DNA from: Chthonomonadaceae bacterium
GTDB taxonomy: Bacteria; Armatimonadota; Chthonomonadetes; Chthonomonadales; Chthonomonadaceae
Length of the DNA: 34,116 bases
Reading direction: 5' to 3'
Assembly: GCA_035650735.1 (NCBI GenBank)
Contig: DASRGZ010000127.1
Coordinates: 1-34,116, forward strand
Below are positions 3,547 through 29,763 of the stretch, piece by piece. The notes beneath the pieces were generated by a model. The model was not told the origin of the DNA. It saw only the letters and a list, made by a program, of their open reading frames with translations, and made no database searches. Position 1 is the first letter of the stretch; each line of letters starts with the position of its first letter. The translations under genes and the position numbers were made by a program.

Positions 3547-3702
3547 CGATTCCCCGCAGGTGCGGAGGTGAACCGCACGACGCTGGAGTGGTTTCTGTGC
3601 CTGGAGCCGACCTATTCCCCACGCGCGTGGGGGTGAACCGAGGATCGCCACGGTCGGCATGCCGGATCATCCGGCTTTCCCCACACACGTGGGGGTGAAC
3701 CG
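3547..3702 (+). CRISPR. Orphan mini CRISPR array with type I-E-like 29-bp repeats (3 repeats, spacers 36 and 33 bp)
   Basis: CGATTCCCCGCAGGTGCGGAGGTGAACCG (3547-3575), CTATTCCCCACGCGCGTGGGGGTGAACCG (3612-3640), GCTTTCCCCACACACGTGGGGGTGAACCG (3674-3702). Confidence 0.8.
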
Positions 3703-3716
3703 CGGAGGCGAGATAG

Positions 3717-4103
3717 ATGTCCCCTGTTGATTACATGTCTTGTCCGCATTGCCAGGTGAATAATCTGCCGGATCGCTCCGTTTGCTGGCGATGCGGCAGG
3801 GCGTTGCCTGTCTTCCTTGGCCCGGATGGGCATCGGCGTTCTAACGCCGGCTCCCCAGAGAGCAAATTGAGCCGCGACGAGATTGAGGCCCTGCTGGCGC
3901 AGGCGCAGGTCGTGGATGTCGAGAGCGCCAAAAAAGGCACGCCTCCGACGGGTGGACCGCCCACGAAAGCCGAACCGCTCAAGAAGCTCCGGGAGTTGCT
4001 GAAGAAAAAACCGTCCAATCCCTCTCAGGAGGACGCTGCCAGCTCCAAAGATGTGGCCAAAGTGTGGCTGGGGCGCGGGAAGCGGCGTCAGCCGGAACTT
4101 TAA
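3717..4103 (+). CDS. Hypothetical protein with N-terminal zinc ribbon
   Basis: CPHC...CWRC; GGAGG RBS; co-oriented within the operon. Confidence 0.7.
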   Translation: MSPVDYMSCPHCQVNNLPDRSVCWRCGRALPVFLGPDGHRRSNAGSPESKLSRDEIEALLAQAQVVDVESAKKGTPPTGGPPTKAEPLKKLRELLKKKPSNPSQEDAASSKDVAKVWLGRGKRRQPEL

Positions 4104-5009: not shown

Positions 5010-7261
5010 AGTCCTTACTGCTGCTCGTGTGTGCATTGTGGATCGCCGCCGGCGCGGGGCGGCTGCTGATGGGGCGGCTGACCGTGCTGCGCGGTTGGCC
5101 TCTGGAGCGCTTTGTCTATTCCGCCGCGCTGGGCCTGGCCGCCGCCGCCTATGGCGTCTTCGCGCTGGGCCTGGTCGGGCTGCTGTCCTTTTGGCCCATC
5201 ACCGCCTGGTGGCTGTTTCTGGCTGCCATCGGCATGGGCGGGATGATCGCCAACGCCCACGACCTGAGGGACGGTACGCACGCCTGGATGGCCAGTTTGC
5301 GTCAGGGCGGCCTGGCGCGCGTCGGCTACCTCGCCGCCACCCTGGCGCTGATCCTGTGCGCCGGGATCGCCGTCCTGGCCTGCTTTCTGCCGCCTGGCGG
5401 CCCGGAATGGGACGCCCTGGCCTACCATCTGGCAGATCCCAAGCTCTTCCTCGAACACGGGCGAATCGTCAGCTTGCCCACCGAGCATCACAGCAACTTC
5501 CCCTTTACGATGGAGATGCTGTTCACGGTCGGCCTGCTCTACGACGGCTACGCCCTGGCCAGCCTGTTCCACTTCCTGATGGCGGCGCTGACGGCGCTGG
5601 CGCTGATCGCCTTCTGCGCGCGCCGCCTGACGCCGGCGGTCGGGTACCTGGCCGCCGTGATCTTCGCCGCGACCCCTTTAGTGGTCTGGGAGGCGCACGC
5701 CGCCTATATTGACCTCGGGCTGGGCCTGTTTGCGACGCTGGCCGCATTTGCCGCCGTGTCGGCGGTGGGGGAGGGGGACGCCGATGCGGGACGCTCCCTC
5801 TCCATCAACGCTAGTTGCCCGGATGCGCTGGCTGCGGGGGACGACGCCGGTGCGGAGCGCTCCCCGGCGGACCAACGCAGGGTGGGGGAGTGGGCGCTGC
5901 TGGCAGGCGCGGCGATGGGATTCGCGCTGGGCATCAAGTACCTGGCGCTGGTGCCGTTTGCGCTGGTCGGCCTGTTGCTGGTGTTGCGGCGCGCGCCGTG
6001 GCGGGCGGTAGCCGTCTACGCGGGCCTGGCGCTGGCGTTGGCCGCGCCGTGGTACATCAAGAACCTCGTCCTCGTTCATAACCCGGTCTATCCCTATTTT
6101 TATAAGGCGTTCCCGCAGAGCCGCTACTGGAGCGCAGACCGCGCGGCCACCTACGAGTCGGAGCAGAAAAGCTTTGGCGTGCCCCGCACCCCGGACGGCC
6201 AGGCCCGTAACCCGCAGGCCCCGCTTCCCGACGAGCTGCGCAGCCTGGCCCAGATCCCCTGGTACGTGCTGATCCATCCCGGCTACTTCACCAATACCGG
6301 CAACAATACGTTCATGGAGCAGTTGGGCGGGCTGTATGCGGCCTTCGGCTTTGCGCTCGTGTTTGTTCCGGGCGTGCCCCGCTCGGTGCGGGAGGTGATG
6401 CTGCTGGGCGTGGCGCAGCTTGTCGCCTGGTTCTTTGTGGCCCAGATCAGCCGCTACCTCATTTCCATTCTGCCGCTGCTGGCGGTGGGGGCGGGCTATG
6501 CGGCCTGGCGGCTCTCCCAGCCTGCCCGGTCGCCGGCCTGGCTGCGCGTTGCGGTCGTGGGCGCCCTCGCCGGGCAGATGGCTGTTCTGCTGTGGGGCGT
6601 CTTTGCGCTGCCCACGCGGGCGCAGGAGGCACGGGAGGAGGACGTACCCATCACGTCGCTTTCGGTGCCGGAGGTTGTCTCGGCGCTGACCCAGCCGCAG
6701 GGCGCGCAGGATCTGCTGTCAGCGCGGCTGGAAACCTATCGCTGCACGCAGTGGATCAACAAGAACACGCCGCCAAAGGCAGGCGTGATCCTCTACGATG
6801 AGACACGCGGCTTCTACCTGGATCGGAACTACCTCTGGGGCAACGGCGAGCACTCCGCCTATATTCCTTACGAGACGATGCGCTCCGGAGAGGACCTGAC
6901 GCGCTGGCTGCTGGCACACGGGTATCAGTATGCCCTGATCAACCTGCGCTACTCGCCGGAACGGAGCCTGCCGAGCTCGCCCTATCCGTTCGGTCCCAAG
7001 AGCCGCGAGGAGACAGAGGACGCCCTGCGGCTCTGGTACGAGCAGACGAAGGCGCCGCCCGGCTCCTGGCGGCGTATTTTGGGCGACGCGCTGCGCTCTG
7101 GCGGATGGCAGGTGGAGTGCGCGGAGAACGGAGTGGTGGCGCTGCGCATTGGCGAGGCGCCGGCCATTGGGCGGACGGTCCTGACTCCCCCGTTTCCCTC
7201 TCCGGCCCCAAGGAGGAAGGAGGAGACAGAGGGGGGAGGGGAGAGAGGGTGGGCTGGTTGA
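5006..7261 (+). CDS. Polytopic membrane protein, GT-C fold glycosyltransferase (ArnT/PMT-like)
   Basis: ATGA overlap with the upstream gene; WDALAYHL, PWYIKN...NPVYP, RYLISILP motifs; many TM segments. Confidence 0.7.
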   Translation: MKSLLLLVCALWIAAGAGRLLMGRLTVLRGWPLERFVYSAALGLAAAAYGVFALGLVGLLSFWPITAWWLFLAAIGMGGMIANAHDLRDGTHAWMASLRQGGLARVGYLAATLALILCAGIAVLACFLPPGGPEWDALAYHLADPKLFLEHGRIVSLPTEHHSNFPFTMEMLFTVGLLYDGYALASLFHFLMAALTALALIAFCARRLTPAVGYLAAVIFAATPLVVWEAHAAYIDLGLGLFATLAAFAAVSAVGEGDADAGRSLSINASCPDALAAGDDAGAERSPADQRRVGEWALLAGAAMGFALGIKYLALVPFALVGLLLVLRRAPWRAVAVYAGLALALAAPWYIKNLVLVHNPVYPYFYKAFPQSRYWSADRAATYESEQKSFGVPRTPDGQARNPQAPLPDELRSLAQIPWYVLIHPGYFTNTGNNTFMEQLGGLYAAFGFALVFVPGVPRSVREVMLLGVAQLVAWFFVAQISRYLISILPLLAVGAGYAAWRLSQPARSPAWLRVAVVGALAGQMAVLLWGVFALPTRAQEAREEDVPITSLSVPEVVSALTQPQGAQDLLSARLETYRCTQWINKNTPPKAGVILYDETRGFYLDRNYLWGNGEHSAYIPYETMRSGEDLTRWLLAHGYQYALINLRYSPERSLPSSPYPFGPKSREETEDALRLWYEQTKAPPGSWRRILGDALRSGGWQVECAENGVVALRIGEAPAIGRTVLTPPFPSPAPRRKEETEGGGERGWAG

Positions 7262-15407: not shown

Positions 15408-15683
15408 CTACGACCCGAGCACCGGTTCGCCATTTGCCAGCGTGCGCACGCCGGAGGGCCGCACCGACTTGGGAGCGACGAGGTCGGGCAAATGCTCTTC
15501 GATCTCGCGGATTTTACTGTAGCAGTCTGCGAGGACTTCCTGGACGCCACGCGTCGTCGTGGAAAGATTTTTAAGGCTTTGTTCTCGCCACTTCATAATG
15601 GCGGCCACCGCGACGATGCCGGCCGCCGCCGCCGTAACCCCCACCCAGACGATCACGTTGGAGTGCTTGCCTGATTTCACCAA
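15408..15683 (-). CDS. Small single-pass membrane hypothetical protein
   Basis: GGAAAGGA RBS, TM segment VIVWVGVTAAAAGIVAVAAI, helical C-terminus; follows the response regulator. Confidence 0.65.
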   Translation of the reverse strand: MVKSGKHSNVIVWVGVTAAAAGIVAVAAIMKWREQSLKNLSTTTRGVQEVLADCYSKIREIEEHLPDLVAPKSVRPSGVRTLANGEPVLGS

Positions 15684-15740
15684 GTGTTTCCTTTCCCGTT
15701 ACTGGATGAAACGCAGCACGATCACCGTATGCCGAGGGAA

Positions 15741-16148
15741 CTACCCCAGGTCATACCGATTGCCGCCCTCGTCCTCTTCCTGCGACTTGAAAATGCGCTT
15801 GACGAAGACGATCAGTTCCATCGGGTTGAATGGCTTGGTCAGGTAGCAATCCACGCCGCTCTGCCAGCCCCGGAACACGTCGGCATCCTGGGCCTTGGCC
15901 GTCAGCATGATTACTGGCAGATCGCGGGTGTTGGGATCTTTGCGCAAATGCTGCAGCACCTCAAAGCCGTCCATGTAGGGCATCATCACGTCCAGTACCA
16001 CCAGATCGGGATGCTCCGCAGCGACCTTCTCCAGCGCTTCCTTGCCGTCAAAGGCCGTCACGACCTGGTAGCCGGCGCGCTCCAGGTTGACCTGCACAAG
16101 CCGGACAATATGTCGTTCGTCATCCACCGCTAGGATCTTCTTAGGCAT
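15741..16148 (-). CDS. Single-domain response regulator (receiver only)
   Basis: KILAVDDE, PDLVVLDVMMP, IMLTA, YLTKPF; no output domain. Confidence 0.92.
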   Translation of the reverse strand: MPKKILAVDDERHIVRLVQVNLERAGYQVVTAFDGKEALEKVAAEHPDLVVLDVMMPYMDGFEVLQHLRKDPNTRDLPVIMLTAKAQDADVFRGWQSGVDCYLTKPFNPMELIVFVKRIFKSQEEDEGGNRYDLG

Positions 16149-16162
16149 CGGTTCCGTTCCTT

Positions 16163-16186
16163 TTCTCCACTTCTCCACTTCTCCAC
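16163..16186. repeat. 8-bp tandem repeat (TTCTCCAC)x3
   Basis: Seen directly, just upstream of the response regulator start. Confidence 0.85.
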
Positions 16187-16189
16187 AGA

Positions 16190-16366
16190 TGGTTCCCCCC
16201 GCGCGTGCGGGGAATATTAGGGGGTTAGGGTTCTAGGGTTCTGTAGGGTGCGAGGGTTCTAAGGTGCTAGGATGCTGCTTCATCCCCGCGCGTGGGGGAA
16301 CAGCCCAGAACCTTAGAACCCTCTAGAACCCTAACCACGGTTCAACCCCGCGGGTGCGGGGAATAG
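16190..16366 (-). CRISPR. Degenerate type I-E-like mini array with repeat-derived, mutually complementary spacers
   Basis: Minus strand: CTATTCCCCGCACCCGCGGGGTTGAACCG (16366-16338), CTGTTCCCCCACGCGCGGGGATGAAGCA (16303-16276), ATATTCCCCGCACGCGCGGGGGGAACCA (16217-16190); intervals 34 and 58 bp. Confidence 0.6.
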
Positions 16367-16403
16367 CGATACAGCTCCATTCGTTTTACCCGAGCCTACG
16401 AGA

Positions 16404-16432
16404 AGTATATCACAACCGCTTCACCGTGTCAA
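16404..16432 (-). promoter_or_regulatory. Near-consensus sigma70 promoter reading into the array and response regulator
   Basis: TTGACA-17 bp-TATACT with extended TG; -35 overlaps the lipoate ligase stop codon. Confidence 0.8.
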
Positions 16433-17274
16433 ATACACGGGTCGGCAGCTGTCCTCCCCTGCGTCCAGCTCGCGCAGGCGTAACGCTCCGCTACCAGATG
16501 GGACGCGCGCACGCGCTCTTCAGGCGTTGCCTGGCTCGCCGTAAAGGACGCGCCCAGCGCCGCCGCAAACCCGTGCAGGATGGCCTCGGCAACGGCGGTG
16601 GCCTCCATAGAGGGCCACGCAGCCGGCGCGTACTCCGCGCTCGCGCCCTTGAACACGGCGGCGCTCAGAGCAGCGTAAGCCTGTCGTTGCTCCGGGTCCA
16701 GGTTGAAAACCAGGGGCAGCGCCGTCTGCTGCAGCACCCATTCCCCACGCCGATGCAGCGCCGTGCCTAGCAGCTTCCGCCCCGTCGCAGCCTCCACGAC
16801 ATCGGCGCGGCTCGTGATGGCGAAGCAGTCCCCCCGTGCGTCCTGAGGCTGTGGGCGAGCGCCATTTCCCATCGTAGCCGCAATGCCTAATTCGGCGAAG
16901 GCGTGCAGCAACCCTTCCGCCAGCCGCGCATAGAGGGCGGCGATGCTAGCGGAGGCGCCGACCGCAAAGCCCAGGGCCTCTATCGGCGCGGCAATGCTGA
17001 TGGTCAGATCGCACCCATGCAGAATGCCGCGCCCGCCCGTGATCCGGCGCACCAACGGCACGCCGCGCGCCGCGCATTCCTCTCGGTGGACCGTACGGCG
17101 GAGGTCCTGAAAGCGGCCCAGGGTGACAGCCGGGCGTTCCCAGCGATATAGGCGCAGTGTGGGCGGGACGACGTTGGCGCTAACGGCCTCCAACAGCGCC
17201 TCATCGAGCGCCATGTTCCAGGCCGCCTCCCCTGCCCCATCCCGGATCATGCGCCACGGACGCGCCGAGCCCAC
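16429..17274 (-). CDS. Lipoate-protein ligase family (LipM/LplA-like octanoyltransferase)
   Basis: NMALDEALL, PTLRLYRW, VRRITGGRGILH, CF, GRKLLG; follows the gcv genes. Confidence 0.88.
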   Translation of the reverse strand: MGSARPWRMIRDGAGEAAWNMALDEALLEAVSANVVPPTLRLYRWERPAVTLGRFQDLRRTVHREECAARGVPLVRRITGGRGILHGCDLTISIAAPIEALGFAVGASASIAALYARLAEGLLHAFAELGIAATMGNGARPQPQDARGDCFAITSRADVVEAATGRKLLGTALHRRGEWVLQQTALPLVFNLDPEQRQAYAALSAAVFKGASAEYAPAAWPSMEATAVAEAILHGFAAALGASFTASQATPEERVRASHLVAERYACASWTQGRTAADPCI

Positions 17275-17276
17275 TT

Positions 17277-18758
17277 CTAAGCCTCACAAACGGCCGTGTA
17301 GCGCAGGTCGAGGTTCTTGACGGCGGCGGTCTCATCCAGGCGGGAGACCACCGTCCGATGCGGCGCGGCCTTGACGACCTCCGGGTTTTCCTGCGCCTCC
17401 CGCGCAATCGAAATCATCGCCTCGATAAAGGCATCGAGAGTCTGCTTACTTTCGGTTTCCGTCGGCTCGATCATCAGGGCTTCCGGCACGATCAGCGGGA
17501 AATAGTTGGTCGGCGGGTGGAAGCCGTAGTCCATCAGGCGCTTGGAGATGTCGAGCGCGCGCACGCCACTCTGCTGCTTTTGGCGCACCGCGGAGAGCAC
17601 CACCTCGTGCATGCAGGGCTGGTTGCCGTAGGCGACCTCAAAGGCGTCGGCCAGGCGAGCGCGGATATAGTTGGCATTGATCACCGCGTTCTCCCCGGCC
17701 TCGCGCAGCCCCTCCGGCCCCAGGCTGCGGATATAGGTATAGGCGCGGACGGCGATGAGGAACGCCCCGTAAAAGGAGTGGATCTTGCCGATGGAGCGCG
17801 GGCGGTCGCAGTTGAACCGATACCTCGCTCCCGGCTGTTCCCGCGTCTCCACCTTCTCCACAATGGGTACCGGCAGGTAGGGCTCCAGGCAGGGCTGGAC
17901 GCTGACCGCGCCGCATCCGGGCCCGCCGCCGCCGTGGGGCGTGCTGAAGGTCTTGTGCAGGTTGAAGTGCATCACATCAAAGCCCATGTCGCCGGGCCGC
18001 GTGATGCCCAGCATAGCGTTCATGTTGGCGCCGTCGCAGTAGACCAGGCCGCCCGCCTCGTGTACCATCCGGCAAATCTGAACGATGTCGCTCTCGAACA
18101 GGCCGACCGTGTTCGGGTTGGTCAGCATGAGCGCGGCGACGTTGTTGTCCAGCGCCGCCGCCAGCGCCTGCAGGTCCGTACGGCCCTGCGCGTTGGAGGG
18201 GATGGAGCGCACCTTGAACCCGCAGCGCGCGGCGCTGGCCGGGTTGGTGCCGTGCGCCGAGTCAGGGATGAGGACGATATCGCGATGGGCCTCCCCGCGA
18301 TCCGCATGATAGGCCTTAATCATCATCATGGCGAGCAGCTCGCCATGCGCTCCGGCGGCGGGCTGCAGGGTCGTCGCCTCCATGCCGCAGACCTCGGCCA
18401 GCATCTTCTGCAGCTCATAGAGGACCGCCAGCGCGCCCTGCGCCGTCTCTTCCGGCTGCAGGGGGTGCAGCGCCGCAAAGCCCGGCAGGCCCGCCGTGCG
18501 CTCGTTGACCTTTGGGTTGTACTTCATCGTGCAGGAGCCGAGCGGATAAAAGCCGGTATCAATGGCGTAGTTGCGCTGCGAGAGGCGCGTAAAGTGGCGC
18601 ACGACCTCCAGCTCGGAGACCTCCGGCAGCGGCAGGTCCGGGCGCAGATTATCCGCGCCCAGCAGCACCGACGGGTCCGTATAGGGTACGTCACACCGGG
18701 GCAGATTGGCCCCGTGGCACCCCGGATCGCTCTTTTCAAAAATCAGCGGTTCACTCAT
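17277..18758 (-). CDS. gcvPB: Glycine dehydrogenase (decarboxylating) subunit 2
   Basis: [45 protein letters not shown]. Confidence 0.97.
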
Positions 18759-18784: not shown

Positions 18785-18928
18785 TTTTAGACAGGATTAA
18801 CCGAATTTCAACAATATGGATAAACCCATGAGAGGGCGCAATCTCAAACTACCATTTCAGGCGGGGCTACCAACCTTGCTATTCTGTCTTGCCGTAATTC
18901 TGTAAATCCTGTTAAATCCTGTCTAAAA
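18785..18928. repeat. REP/MITE-like inverted-repeat element between gcvPA and gcvPB
   Basis: Perfect 14-bp IR ttttagacaggatt / aatcctgtctaaaa with internal AATCCTGT units. Confidence 0.75.
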
Positions 18929-29584: not shown

Positions 29585-29763
29585 ATTCCTGCCTGGCCCC
29601 CACCCCGGCCTGCGGCCACCCACTGCCAAGGTCGGACCTGCAACGGACTGCCATGGTTGGGCCCCTGCTCGGGTCGGCGCTGCCATGGTTCGCGCCTCCG
29701 CCTAGCCACACCTGGCCACAGCCCTCCGCCTGGCGACATGGCTCCGCCTTGCGATCCACGCTG

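Follow-up and report, generated by a model that had tools for sequence, protein, structure and literature searches.

The leader of a small response-regulator gene in the bacterial genome studied here (G000) contains three CRISPR-like repeats that alternate with arrays of a short octamer, which raises the question of whether CRISPR machinery has been coupled to the expression of a signalling protein or whether the arrangement has another origin. The initial annotation of this locus had offered three answers: a hairpin leader that is cleaved by Cas6, a guide against a genomic repeat family, and a CRISPR repeat that has become a REP-like dispersed element. We think it fairly probable that the composite is instead a relic type I-E mini-array joined to a selfish octamer hairpin, a lineage-specific insertion tolerated in the leader of the regulator rather than a Cas6e switch.

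The source genome is a draft of 6.52 Mb (63% G+C) in 224 contigs, with a marker-gene completeness of 97.6%, and the window, by which we mean the whole stretch of 34,116 nucleotides that was analysed, is its contig C127. The composite (16189-16366) sits in a 280-bp gap separating two minus-strand genes, and the order read on that strand is promoter, three type I-E repeats with two inverted TAGGGTKC octamer arrays, and regulator gene. Gene annotation of the window gives the gcv operon, the lipoate ligase, rho, guaA and an ABC transporter as neighbours, and family searches of the window genes returned no cas gene. The features are, in the direction of transcription:

16429..17274, minus strand: lipoate-protein-ligase-like gene (lplA), last in the row gcvT-gcvH-gcvPA-gcvPB-lplA and upstream of the leader
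16404..16432, minus strand: predicted sigma-70-type promoter of the response-regulator gene, with 11 of 12 consensus matches and a TG before the -10 box
16149..16397, minus strand: predicted 5' UTR of about 249 nt, from promoter position and fold
16338..16366, minus strand: promoter-proximal orphan I-E repeat, A type, CTATTCCCCGCACCCGCGGGGTTGAACCG, with 2 mismatches to the 29-nt genome consensus and its 6-bp stem intact
16304..16337, minus strand: first octamer arm, 34 nt, with TAGGGTTC-type units on the RNA, pairing with 16218-16277
16278..16303, minus strand: central degenerate repeat (palindromic B type) that caps the long hairpin, its stem reduced to 4 bp
16218..16277, minus strand: second octamer arm, 60 nt, with GMACCCTA-type units on the RNA, pairing with the first arm
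16189..16217, minus strand: gene-proximal repeat ATATTCCCCGCACGCGCGGGGGGAACCAT, stem intact, with a 1-nt deletion in its B-like 3' handle
16163..16186, minus strand: three tandem GTGGAGAA 8-mers (TTCTCCAC on the plus strand; period 8, 3.0 copies, 100% matches)
15741..16148, minus strand: receiver-only (CheY-like) response regulator of 135 aa (Pfam PF00072, E 2.1e-30)

The regulator lacks an output domain and scores under every NCBIfam equivalog cut-off. Its near-consensus promoter (TTGACA-17-TGnTATACT) is present as the initial annotation described it, with TTGACA at 16432-16427, a 17-nt spacer and a TG-extended TATACT at 16409-16404; the -35 box shares bases with the TGA stop codon of the lipoate-ligase-like gene upstream, and transcription is predicted to start at about 16397. 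A consensus scan of 15500-17500 finds 1 promoter-like site where 0.3 would be expected from shuffled sequence. Moreover, TTGACA-N17-TAnnnT precedes the orthologous regulator gene in 11 of 11 relatives, in which the protein is 84-93% identical in amino-acid sequence, and the gene order around the composite is syntenic with that of the relatives, both flanking genes being well conserved. The promoter thus conserved appears to be genuine. The predicted leaders of these 11 relatives are 58-133 nt long, unrelated in sequence and contain 0 I-E cores and 0 octamer units, while that of G000 measures 249 nt, of which the composite accounts for 178 nt. Since the promoter is kept in every relative and the leaders there are short and carry neither repeat, the 178-bp composite is a lineage-specific insertion into a pre-existing and genuine 5' UTR.

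The predicted 252-nt leader RNA has a folding energy of -102.7 kcal/mol (z = -3.05), and only 2 of 200 shuffled sequences fold equally well. Each outer repeat is predicted to form a hairpin of its own and the octamer arms to form a duplex that the central repeat closes. The arms, which tandem-repeat analysis (TRF) describes as period 8 with 5.5 copies, are complementary at 81% over a 27-nt stretch and at 94% over a 17-nt stretch; this complementarity and the predicted fold bear out the earlier suggestion that the two oppositely oriented arrays can pair around the middle repeat. Between composite and start codon, the GTGGAGAA 8-mers form a purine-rich tract with several Shine-Dalgarno-like GGAG motifs. 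No Rfam family reaches its gathering score anywhere in the window, and the composite locus gives nothing even at permissive E-values.

What kind of CRISPR repeat this is can be settled by comparison with relatives. The genome-wide consensus, CTATTCCCCGCACGCGCGGGGGTGAACCG, is 29 nt long and recovers 25 copies at ≤7 mismatches (reversed control, 0); the repeats have the 28-29 nt length, stem-loop and 8-nt 3' handle of type I-E, and GTGAACCG, at the end of their sense strand, resembles the I-E handle. Repeats matching CTATTCCCCGCACGCGCGGGGGTGAACCG form long arrays with a 61-bp period that adjoin cas6e, and lie on the cas6e strand, in five members of the same family or order as G000 (G034, G002, G012, G039 and G035), which fixes both the type I-E identity and the sense strand. 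That sense strand is the minus strand in the window, i.e. the strand of the regulator gene, and the regulator transcript would hence carry the repeats in crRNA sense; the coordinates and the sense orientation that the initial annotation had assigned to three I-E-like repeats are correct, the strand being the one that cas6e occupies in the relatives. In all, orphan I-E repeats are present at ~16 intergenic loci of G000, mostly with 1-4 copies each, amounting to ~27 A-type copies. Self-complementarity covers 22 of 28 positions in the B repeat, compared with 14 of 29 in the A repeat, and the B repeat is a palindromised form of the I-E repeat.

The ~61-bp period and unique 32-33-nt spacers of a type I-E array are found on C126, C114, C147 and C109 but not at C127, where the intervals are 34 bp (16304-16337, the length originally given) and 60 bp and both consist of octamer arrays. 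By comparison, 10 of the 13 true spacers extracted from G000 are 32 or 33 nt long. The window locus is one of three paralogous composites, the others being C109:6170-6463 and C19:53100-53307, all with the order A repeat, arm, B repeat(s), arm, A repeat, and with conserved junctions. C127 and C109 are near-identical over >60 nt, their A-repeat/arm junctions being nearly the same, and the B-repeat junctions of C127 are homologous to those at C109 and C19. Three B repeats are present at C109 and two at C19, in both cases with a 61-bp period and spacers of 33-35 nt, and a single decayed one at C127; the arms of C109 measure ~35 and ~54 nt. The shared order and conserved junctions suggest that the composite formed once and was then copied.

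One of the C109 spacers (6322-6354, L159) is identical at 33 of 33 positions to C91:1275-1307 (L158) and has an AAG-type PAM, a comparison that does not apply to the octamer intervals of C127. The AAG precedes the C91 protospacer in the sense orientation, and its G is shared with the end of the repeat, which is the pattern of I-E acquisition. A perfect self-match with this PAM implies that I-E adaptation was recently active in the lineage, and the inner repeats appear to have been a live I-E array not long ago. No other self-match of the true spacers was seen at E ≤ 0.01 beyond this pair and a hairpin on C69. The gene that contains the protospacer (C91:965-1423) is a 152-aa ORF with a DUF5615 gene and an ADP-ribosylglycohydrolase gene as neighbours; Pfam and PHROGs searches of this gene and its neighbours turned up nothing phage-like, matching only DUF5615, ADP-ribosylglycohydrolase and a polysaccharide export protein.

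The octamers are another kind of repeat. The pattern TAGGGTKC has 41 hits at ~20 loci in G000 (reversed control, 0), the majority of them without a CRISPR repeat, and its usual form is a [TAGGGTKC]n-loop-[GMACCCTA]n hairpin, of which four loci have the loop GAGGTAGTTAG in common. Hence the view that the 'spacers' of the composite are not captured foreign DNA has held up, since they are members of a dispersed family of octamer-array hairpins. None of 40 relatives contains the pattern, including the sole genome of the same genus (89% complete). Scanning one genome per species, on the other hand, revealed more than 119 octamer loci (L039-L157 being those listed) in very distant groups (e.g. L070, L094, L042, L098 and L139); many belong to Acidobacteriota/Vicinamibacterales, and others to Dialister, Paludibacteraceae, Lentisphaeria, Flaviaesturariibacter, Armatimonadota, Chloroflexota and Actinomycetota. 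Of the 119 loci listed, 14 take the form of forward/reverse hairpins, and an I-E repeat core lies close to 0 of them. Rfam searches at permissive E-values with octamer hairpins from other phyla yield only sub-threshold microRNA-precursor look-alikes. A phage origin of the arrays was considered and rejected, there being just 2 matches in a collection of viral contigs. The tandem forms GGGTTCTAGGGTTC and GAACCCTAGAACCC have 0 occurrences in the 20 best-ranked of the 2,063 papers containing the 8-mer strings, none of those 20 being relevant, and literature searches on STRR or octamer repeats returned nothing relevant. Judged by these distributions, the octamer arrays form a hairpin-forming, dispersed family that appears to be separate from the CRISPR repeats and expanded in G000, and they may represent an undescribed class of bacterial dispersed repeat.

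Efforts to find the machinery that would act on the I-E repeats of G000 have been unsuccessful. The Cas6e family (PF08798) has 0 hits in the assembly; in the 14 control genomes this profile gave a hit only in Thermus, and the sensitivity of this single search is therefore limited, although it found 8 relatives and so works in the clade. No I-E-type Cas1 was found, the one Cas1 that PF01867 detects belonging to a type I + type III locus with Cas4, and tblastx of six loci (cas6e plus flanks, from five relatives) against G000 gave scattered noise and no coherent match that could be a remnant of I-E cas genes. G000 thus offers none of the cognate genes expected of an I-E array (cas6e, cas1/cas2, Cascade, cas3), an absence to be read against a 97.6%-complete draft in 224 contigs, in which an island could be unassembled or strain-variable. 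The sole assembled CRISPR-cas region is C93:2502-20000 (L003), with an array of ~80 repeats of the type GTTTCAATTCCA... followed by cas1, a Cas_APE2256 gene, a RAMP gene, csm2, cas10, cas4, cas3, cas5 and a DevR-type cas7. By its gene content, this locus is a composite of type I and type III and has no relation to the I-E repeats. We infer that G000 has lost its I-E cas genes, and the perfect self-target would fit a later loss of the interference genes.

In the reading that we prefer, a relic mini-array with a selfish hairpin, the composite has two components. One is the orphan I-E mini-array, consisting of two outer A-type repeats and a central, palindromised B-type repeat; the other is an inverted pair of TAGGGTKC arrays from the dispersed hairpin family. 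The chimera would have arisen once and been copied to three loci, one copy landing in the regulator leader. There the conserved promoter would drive transcription of the composite within the mRNA leader, and the leader RNA would form three hairpins, one of ~30 bp. Any present role would be that of a passive RNA structure at most, possibly as an RNase III target or stability determinant, and would not operate via Cas6e, the I-E cas genes being presumed lost in keeping with the self-targeting spacer.

A neutral relic alone leaves one pattern without explanation, however. The genome-wide search for orientation that the initial annotation had called for shows that the repeats are dispersed but not randomly oriented: 14 of 16 orphan loci face a downstream gene that runs in their own direction (one-sided binomial p = 0.002), and each of the 12 loci flanked on both sides by co-directional genes is in sense (p = 0.00024 in the same test), counts that rest on GC3-filtered gene calls, some upstream neighbours being called on GC3 alone, and on loci that are not fully independent, since the three composites are paralogues. 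Pfam confirms 10 of the 14 downstream genes (PspA, release factor, PP2C, TatA, Fpg, MetRS, an epimerase, a GT2 glycosyltransferase, a PilT-like ATPase and the regulator). The outer A repeat at C19 is flipped relative to the composite and yet is still co-oriented with its gene. In addition, the 3' end of the repeat lies ≤25 nt from the start codon in 7 of 14 repeats. The solitary sense repeat before fpg (C105:11275-11303) stops 3 nt short of the GTG start, from which Pfam aligns at residue 1, and that at C32:19718-19746 abuts its ATG (0 nt). These distances leave GGGGGTGA as the only candidate Shine-Dalgarno sequence at both genes, where on the predicted starts it would have to serve as the ribosome-binding site. 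The stem of the orphan repeats is paired in 154 of 168 cells, with one pair being G-C in 13 cases and A-T in 9. This sense bias, the position of the repeat at the two start codons and the maintained pairing hint at selection, or at a mechanism tied to transcription.

It is possible, though to our mind rather unlikely, that the repeats have been exapted independently of Cas as a leader module in which the I-E hairpin, the Shine-Dalgarno-like GGGGGTGA and the arm hairpin tune mRNA stability or translation for the regulator and a dozen other housekeeping genes. The sense placement at 12 of 12 tandem-context loci, the proximity to start codons and the provision of the sole possible ribosome-binding site at fpg and C32 would all follow from such a role, as would the retention of the stem with G-C and A-T alternatives, and the release-factor leader on C69 has a comparable repeat with a flanking 16-nt inverted pair. 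Similar leaders also exist in two relatives without cas6e. Three sense repeats lie between a promoter-like site and rpoB in G022 (L021, G022:C4 ~960500-960700), the last of them merging into GGAGG, and four sense repeats precede folD in G018 (L022, G018:C56 ~5050-5270), with TATACT abutting the first. The positions of the orphan repeats are not shared between genomes, however, which argues against long-term constraint: the folD array of G018 is absent before folD in G000, whereas the rpoB comparison is empty, as the N-terminus of G022 rpoB has no tblastn match in G000 at 1e-20. Moreover, both the G-C and the A-T stem variants are present as array repeats in relatives, so that the covariation may be inherited, and the central repeat at C127 has decayed.

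An evolutionary extension of the same idea, to which we assign a low probability, is that the I-E repeat escaped from immunity and spread as a Cas-independent leader module with the Shine-Dalgarno-like GGGGGTGA, the octamer chimera being one product. On this account Cas6e would cut such leaders, and spread would have become possible only once Cas6e was gone. The genes served, always with the repeat in sense a short way ahead of them, would include those for the response regulator, the release factor, MetRS, TatA, Fpg and the PilT-like ATPase, together with rpoB and folD in the two cas6e-less relatives.

The relationship between scatter and cas6e also bears on the idea, put forward in the initial annotation, of a Cas6-cleavable leader that couples CRISPR activity to signalling. 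For this to apply, the leader repeats would be cleaved by an enzyme encoded on an unassembled or strain-variable I-E island, and CRISPR activity would in this manner be tied to expression of the regulator. Accessory islands are often absent from draft assemblies, and this draft could have missed one; furthermore, two of the three repeats have an intact I-E stem and lie in sense behind a strong predicted promoter, and the self-spacer with its AAG PAM points to recent I-E adaptation. Nevertheless, cas6e was found in 8 relatives, 5 of which match the repeat pattern, and in those 5 the repeats are confined to one or two contigs each and lie in arrays among the matches listed. Scattered repeats instead occur in genomes without cas6e, which is the opposite of what the coupling predicts. 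(The only repeat in G005, on C343, is at a contig end.) G000 itself has no detectable cas6e, I-E cas1 or other I-E cas remnant, its only cas locus uses a different repeat, and a perfect self-targeting spacer would be lethal if interference were active. We consequently regard this coupling as very unlikely.

Even less can be said for a leaderless but working mini-array whose crRNAs would be made from a borrowed host promoter, octamer 'spacers' guiding Cascade to the TAGGGTKC family. An array that borrows promoters would need to lie in sense downstream of them, as these repeats do, and one interval, at 34 bp, is close to spacer length. The other is 60 bp, however, and the C109 arms are ~35 and 54 nt, against the 32-33 nt expected; the arms are shared with two paralogous loci and their family also occurs without CRISPR repeats; and the ~20 chromosomal targets would amount to autoimmunity. 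With the genes for the Cascade effector also not found in G000, the guide function suggested at the outset is extremely improbable.

Finally, contigs from three sequencing runs (three studies), some of which may be source data, span 15600-17000 or 15861-17000 with 0 differences, and contigs of four runs show no indel or joint within 16149-16428. This agreement between runs argues against local misassembly of the composite region, which is unlikely. The suspicion that repeats were collapsed or misjoined in a metagenome-derived draft of 224 contigs has almost no probability when single contigs cross the locus and the composite lies between two well-conserved genes in the syntenic order of the relatives.

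Several known systems resemble the composite in part. Orphan or degenerate CRISPR arrays reportedly persist after cas loss, often with self-targeting spacers, and the I-E repeats of G000 are like them in being without cognate cas genes, in having decayed copies and in including a perfect self-targeting spacer with a PAM. They differ in being scattered over ~16 loci, in the leaders and intercistronic gaps of housekeeping genes, in their strong co-orientation, and in their fusion, at three loci, with a hairpin repeat of another family. Cas6/Csy4 sites have been engineered into 5' UTRs to insulate gene expression, and the C127 repeat hairpin similarly lies between promoter and ribosome-binding site, but the engineered design depends on a nuclease and none of that kind was found in G000.

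Dispersed repeats offer a second set of comparisons. REP and BIME elements are short, extragenic, hairpin-forming repeats that are dispersed in one genome, often transcribed as part of operons and associated with RAYT transposases. The G000 repeats are likewise short, extragenic, imperfect palindromes with many dispersed copies, although in modest number (tens rather than hundreds), and unlike REP/BIME the A repeats keep the direct orientation and 61-bp period of CRISPR. The proposal of a REP-like element therefore stands as regards dispersal; it is weakened by the fact that the RAYT-like genes are flanked by other palindromes and by the lack of target-site duplications. A RAYT link was rejected on the basis of two full PF01797 matches on C166, both flanked by unrelated palindromes (a weak third match on C52 is excluded from this count). 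These two Y1 transposase genes, C166:80092-80433 (L178) and C166:12640-12873 (L179), have inverted REP-like palindromes of their own, of the GCCGGGTACTTTCAGTGCCCGGC and GCCCGGCCCTAAAGGACCGGGC types. Target-site duplications of the kind that border MITEs were not seen for 27 I-E repeat copies, whose 45-nt flanks have a longest direct match of 4-7 nt, no different from 300 random sites. As for the octamers, the cyanobacterial STRR heptamer arrays and the Nezha MITE are intergenic, hairpin-capable tandem arrays of 7-8-nt units with lineage-specific expansions. The octamer arrays are also intergenic, hairpin-capable and expanded in one lineage, but their unit is the octamer TAGGGTKC, they occur in many non-cyanobacterial phyla, and a mobilising gene was not found.

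A third set comprises CRISPR-derived elements with a function. The available text of one preprint describes crRNA-like regulatory mini-arrays as stand-alone or two-repeat units, often with a degenerate distal repeat, and proposes that repeat recombination yields raw material for exaptation (Shmakov et al. 2023, bioRxiv 10.1101/2023.03.03.530964). The G000 units share with these mini-arrays and with CreTA a derivation from CRISPR repeats. As portrayed in that text, however, such elements lie in or beside cas loci, need an effector and have a spacer that is partly complementary to a promoter, whereas the G000 composite has neither cas locus nor effector, and at C127 there is neither a neighbouring cas locus nor a promoter-complementary spacer with a PAM. 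RNA anti-CRISPRs (Racrs) are described, in the accessible part of their report, as repeat units that occur singly in phages (Camara-Wilpert et al. 2023, PMC10651486). The solitary repeats of G000 also lie outside arrays, with predicted expression; by that partial account Racrs are viral and act on host Cas proteins, whereas the G000 repeats are chromosomal, stand before housekeeping genes and have no detected cognate Cas. Orphan arrays and stand-alone repeats are thus known, for the most part as remnants or as regulators within cas loci, and what G000 adds is their presence in the leaders of core genes, co-oriented with transcription, with cognate cas genes undetectable and some repeats fused to a second repeat family. 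If selection lies behind this pattern, CRISPR repeats would have been reused for ordinary gene expression; if a mechanism lies behind it, the pattern would be informative on the origin of ectopic mini-arrays.

Other repeats in and around the window deserve mention. A second orphan I-E mini-array at 3547-3702 (plus strand) consists of three sense repeats, all diverged, separated by spacers of 36 and 33 nt; it begins 33 nt past a HAD-hydrolase gene and stops 14 nt short of the ATG of a 128-aa ORF (3717-4103) that gave no family match. The release-factor leader at C69:3800-4000 has TTGACA-17-TATACT followed by two sense repeats at a distance of 48 bp; the 19-nt spacer between them has 16 nt complementary to a stretch just upstream of the ribosome-binding site, a second instance of an inverted pair around a CRISPR repeat, and this complementarity is flanked by repeat-derived CCG and not by a PAM. 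The intergenic DNA of G000 is unusually rich in repeat families, as illustrated within the window by ACAGGATTT 9-mers at 401-436, with the complement of ACAGGATTT at 18903-18927 in the gcvPB/gcvPA gap, by a CCTGGCCACAGCCCTCCG-type repeat at 29700-29750, of which C19 and C66 contain further examples, and by a 22-mer in ~2.2 copies at 2766-2814.
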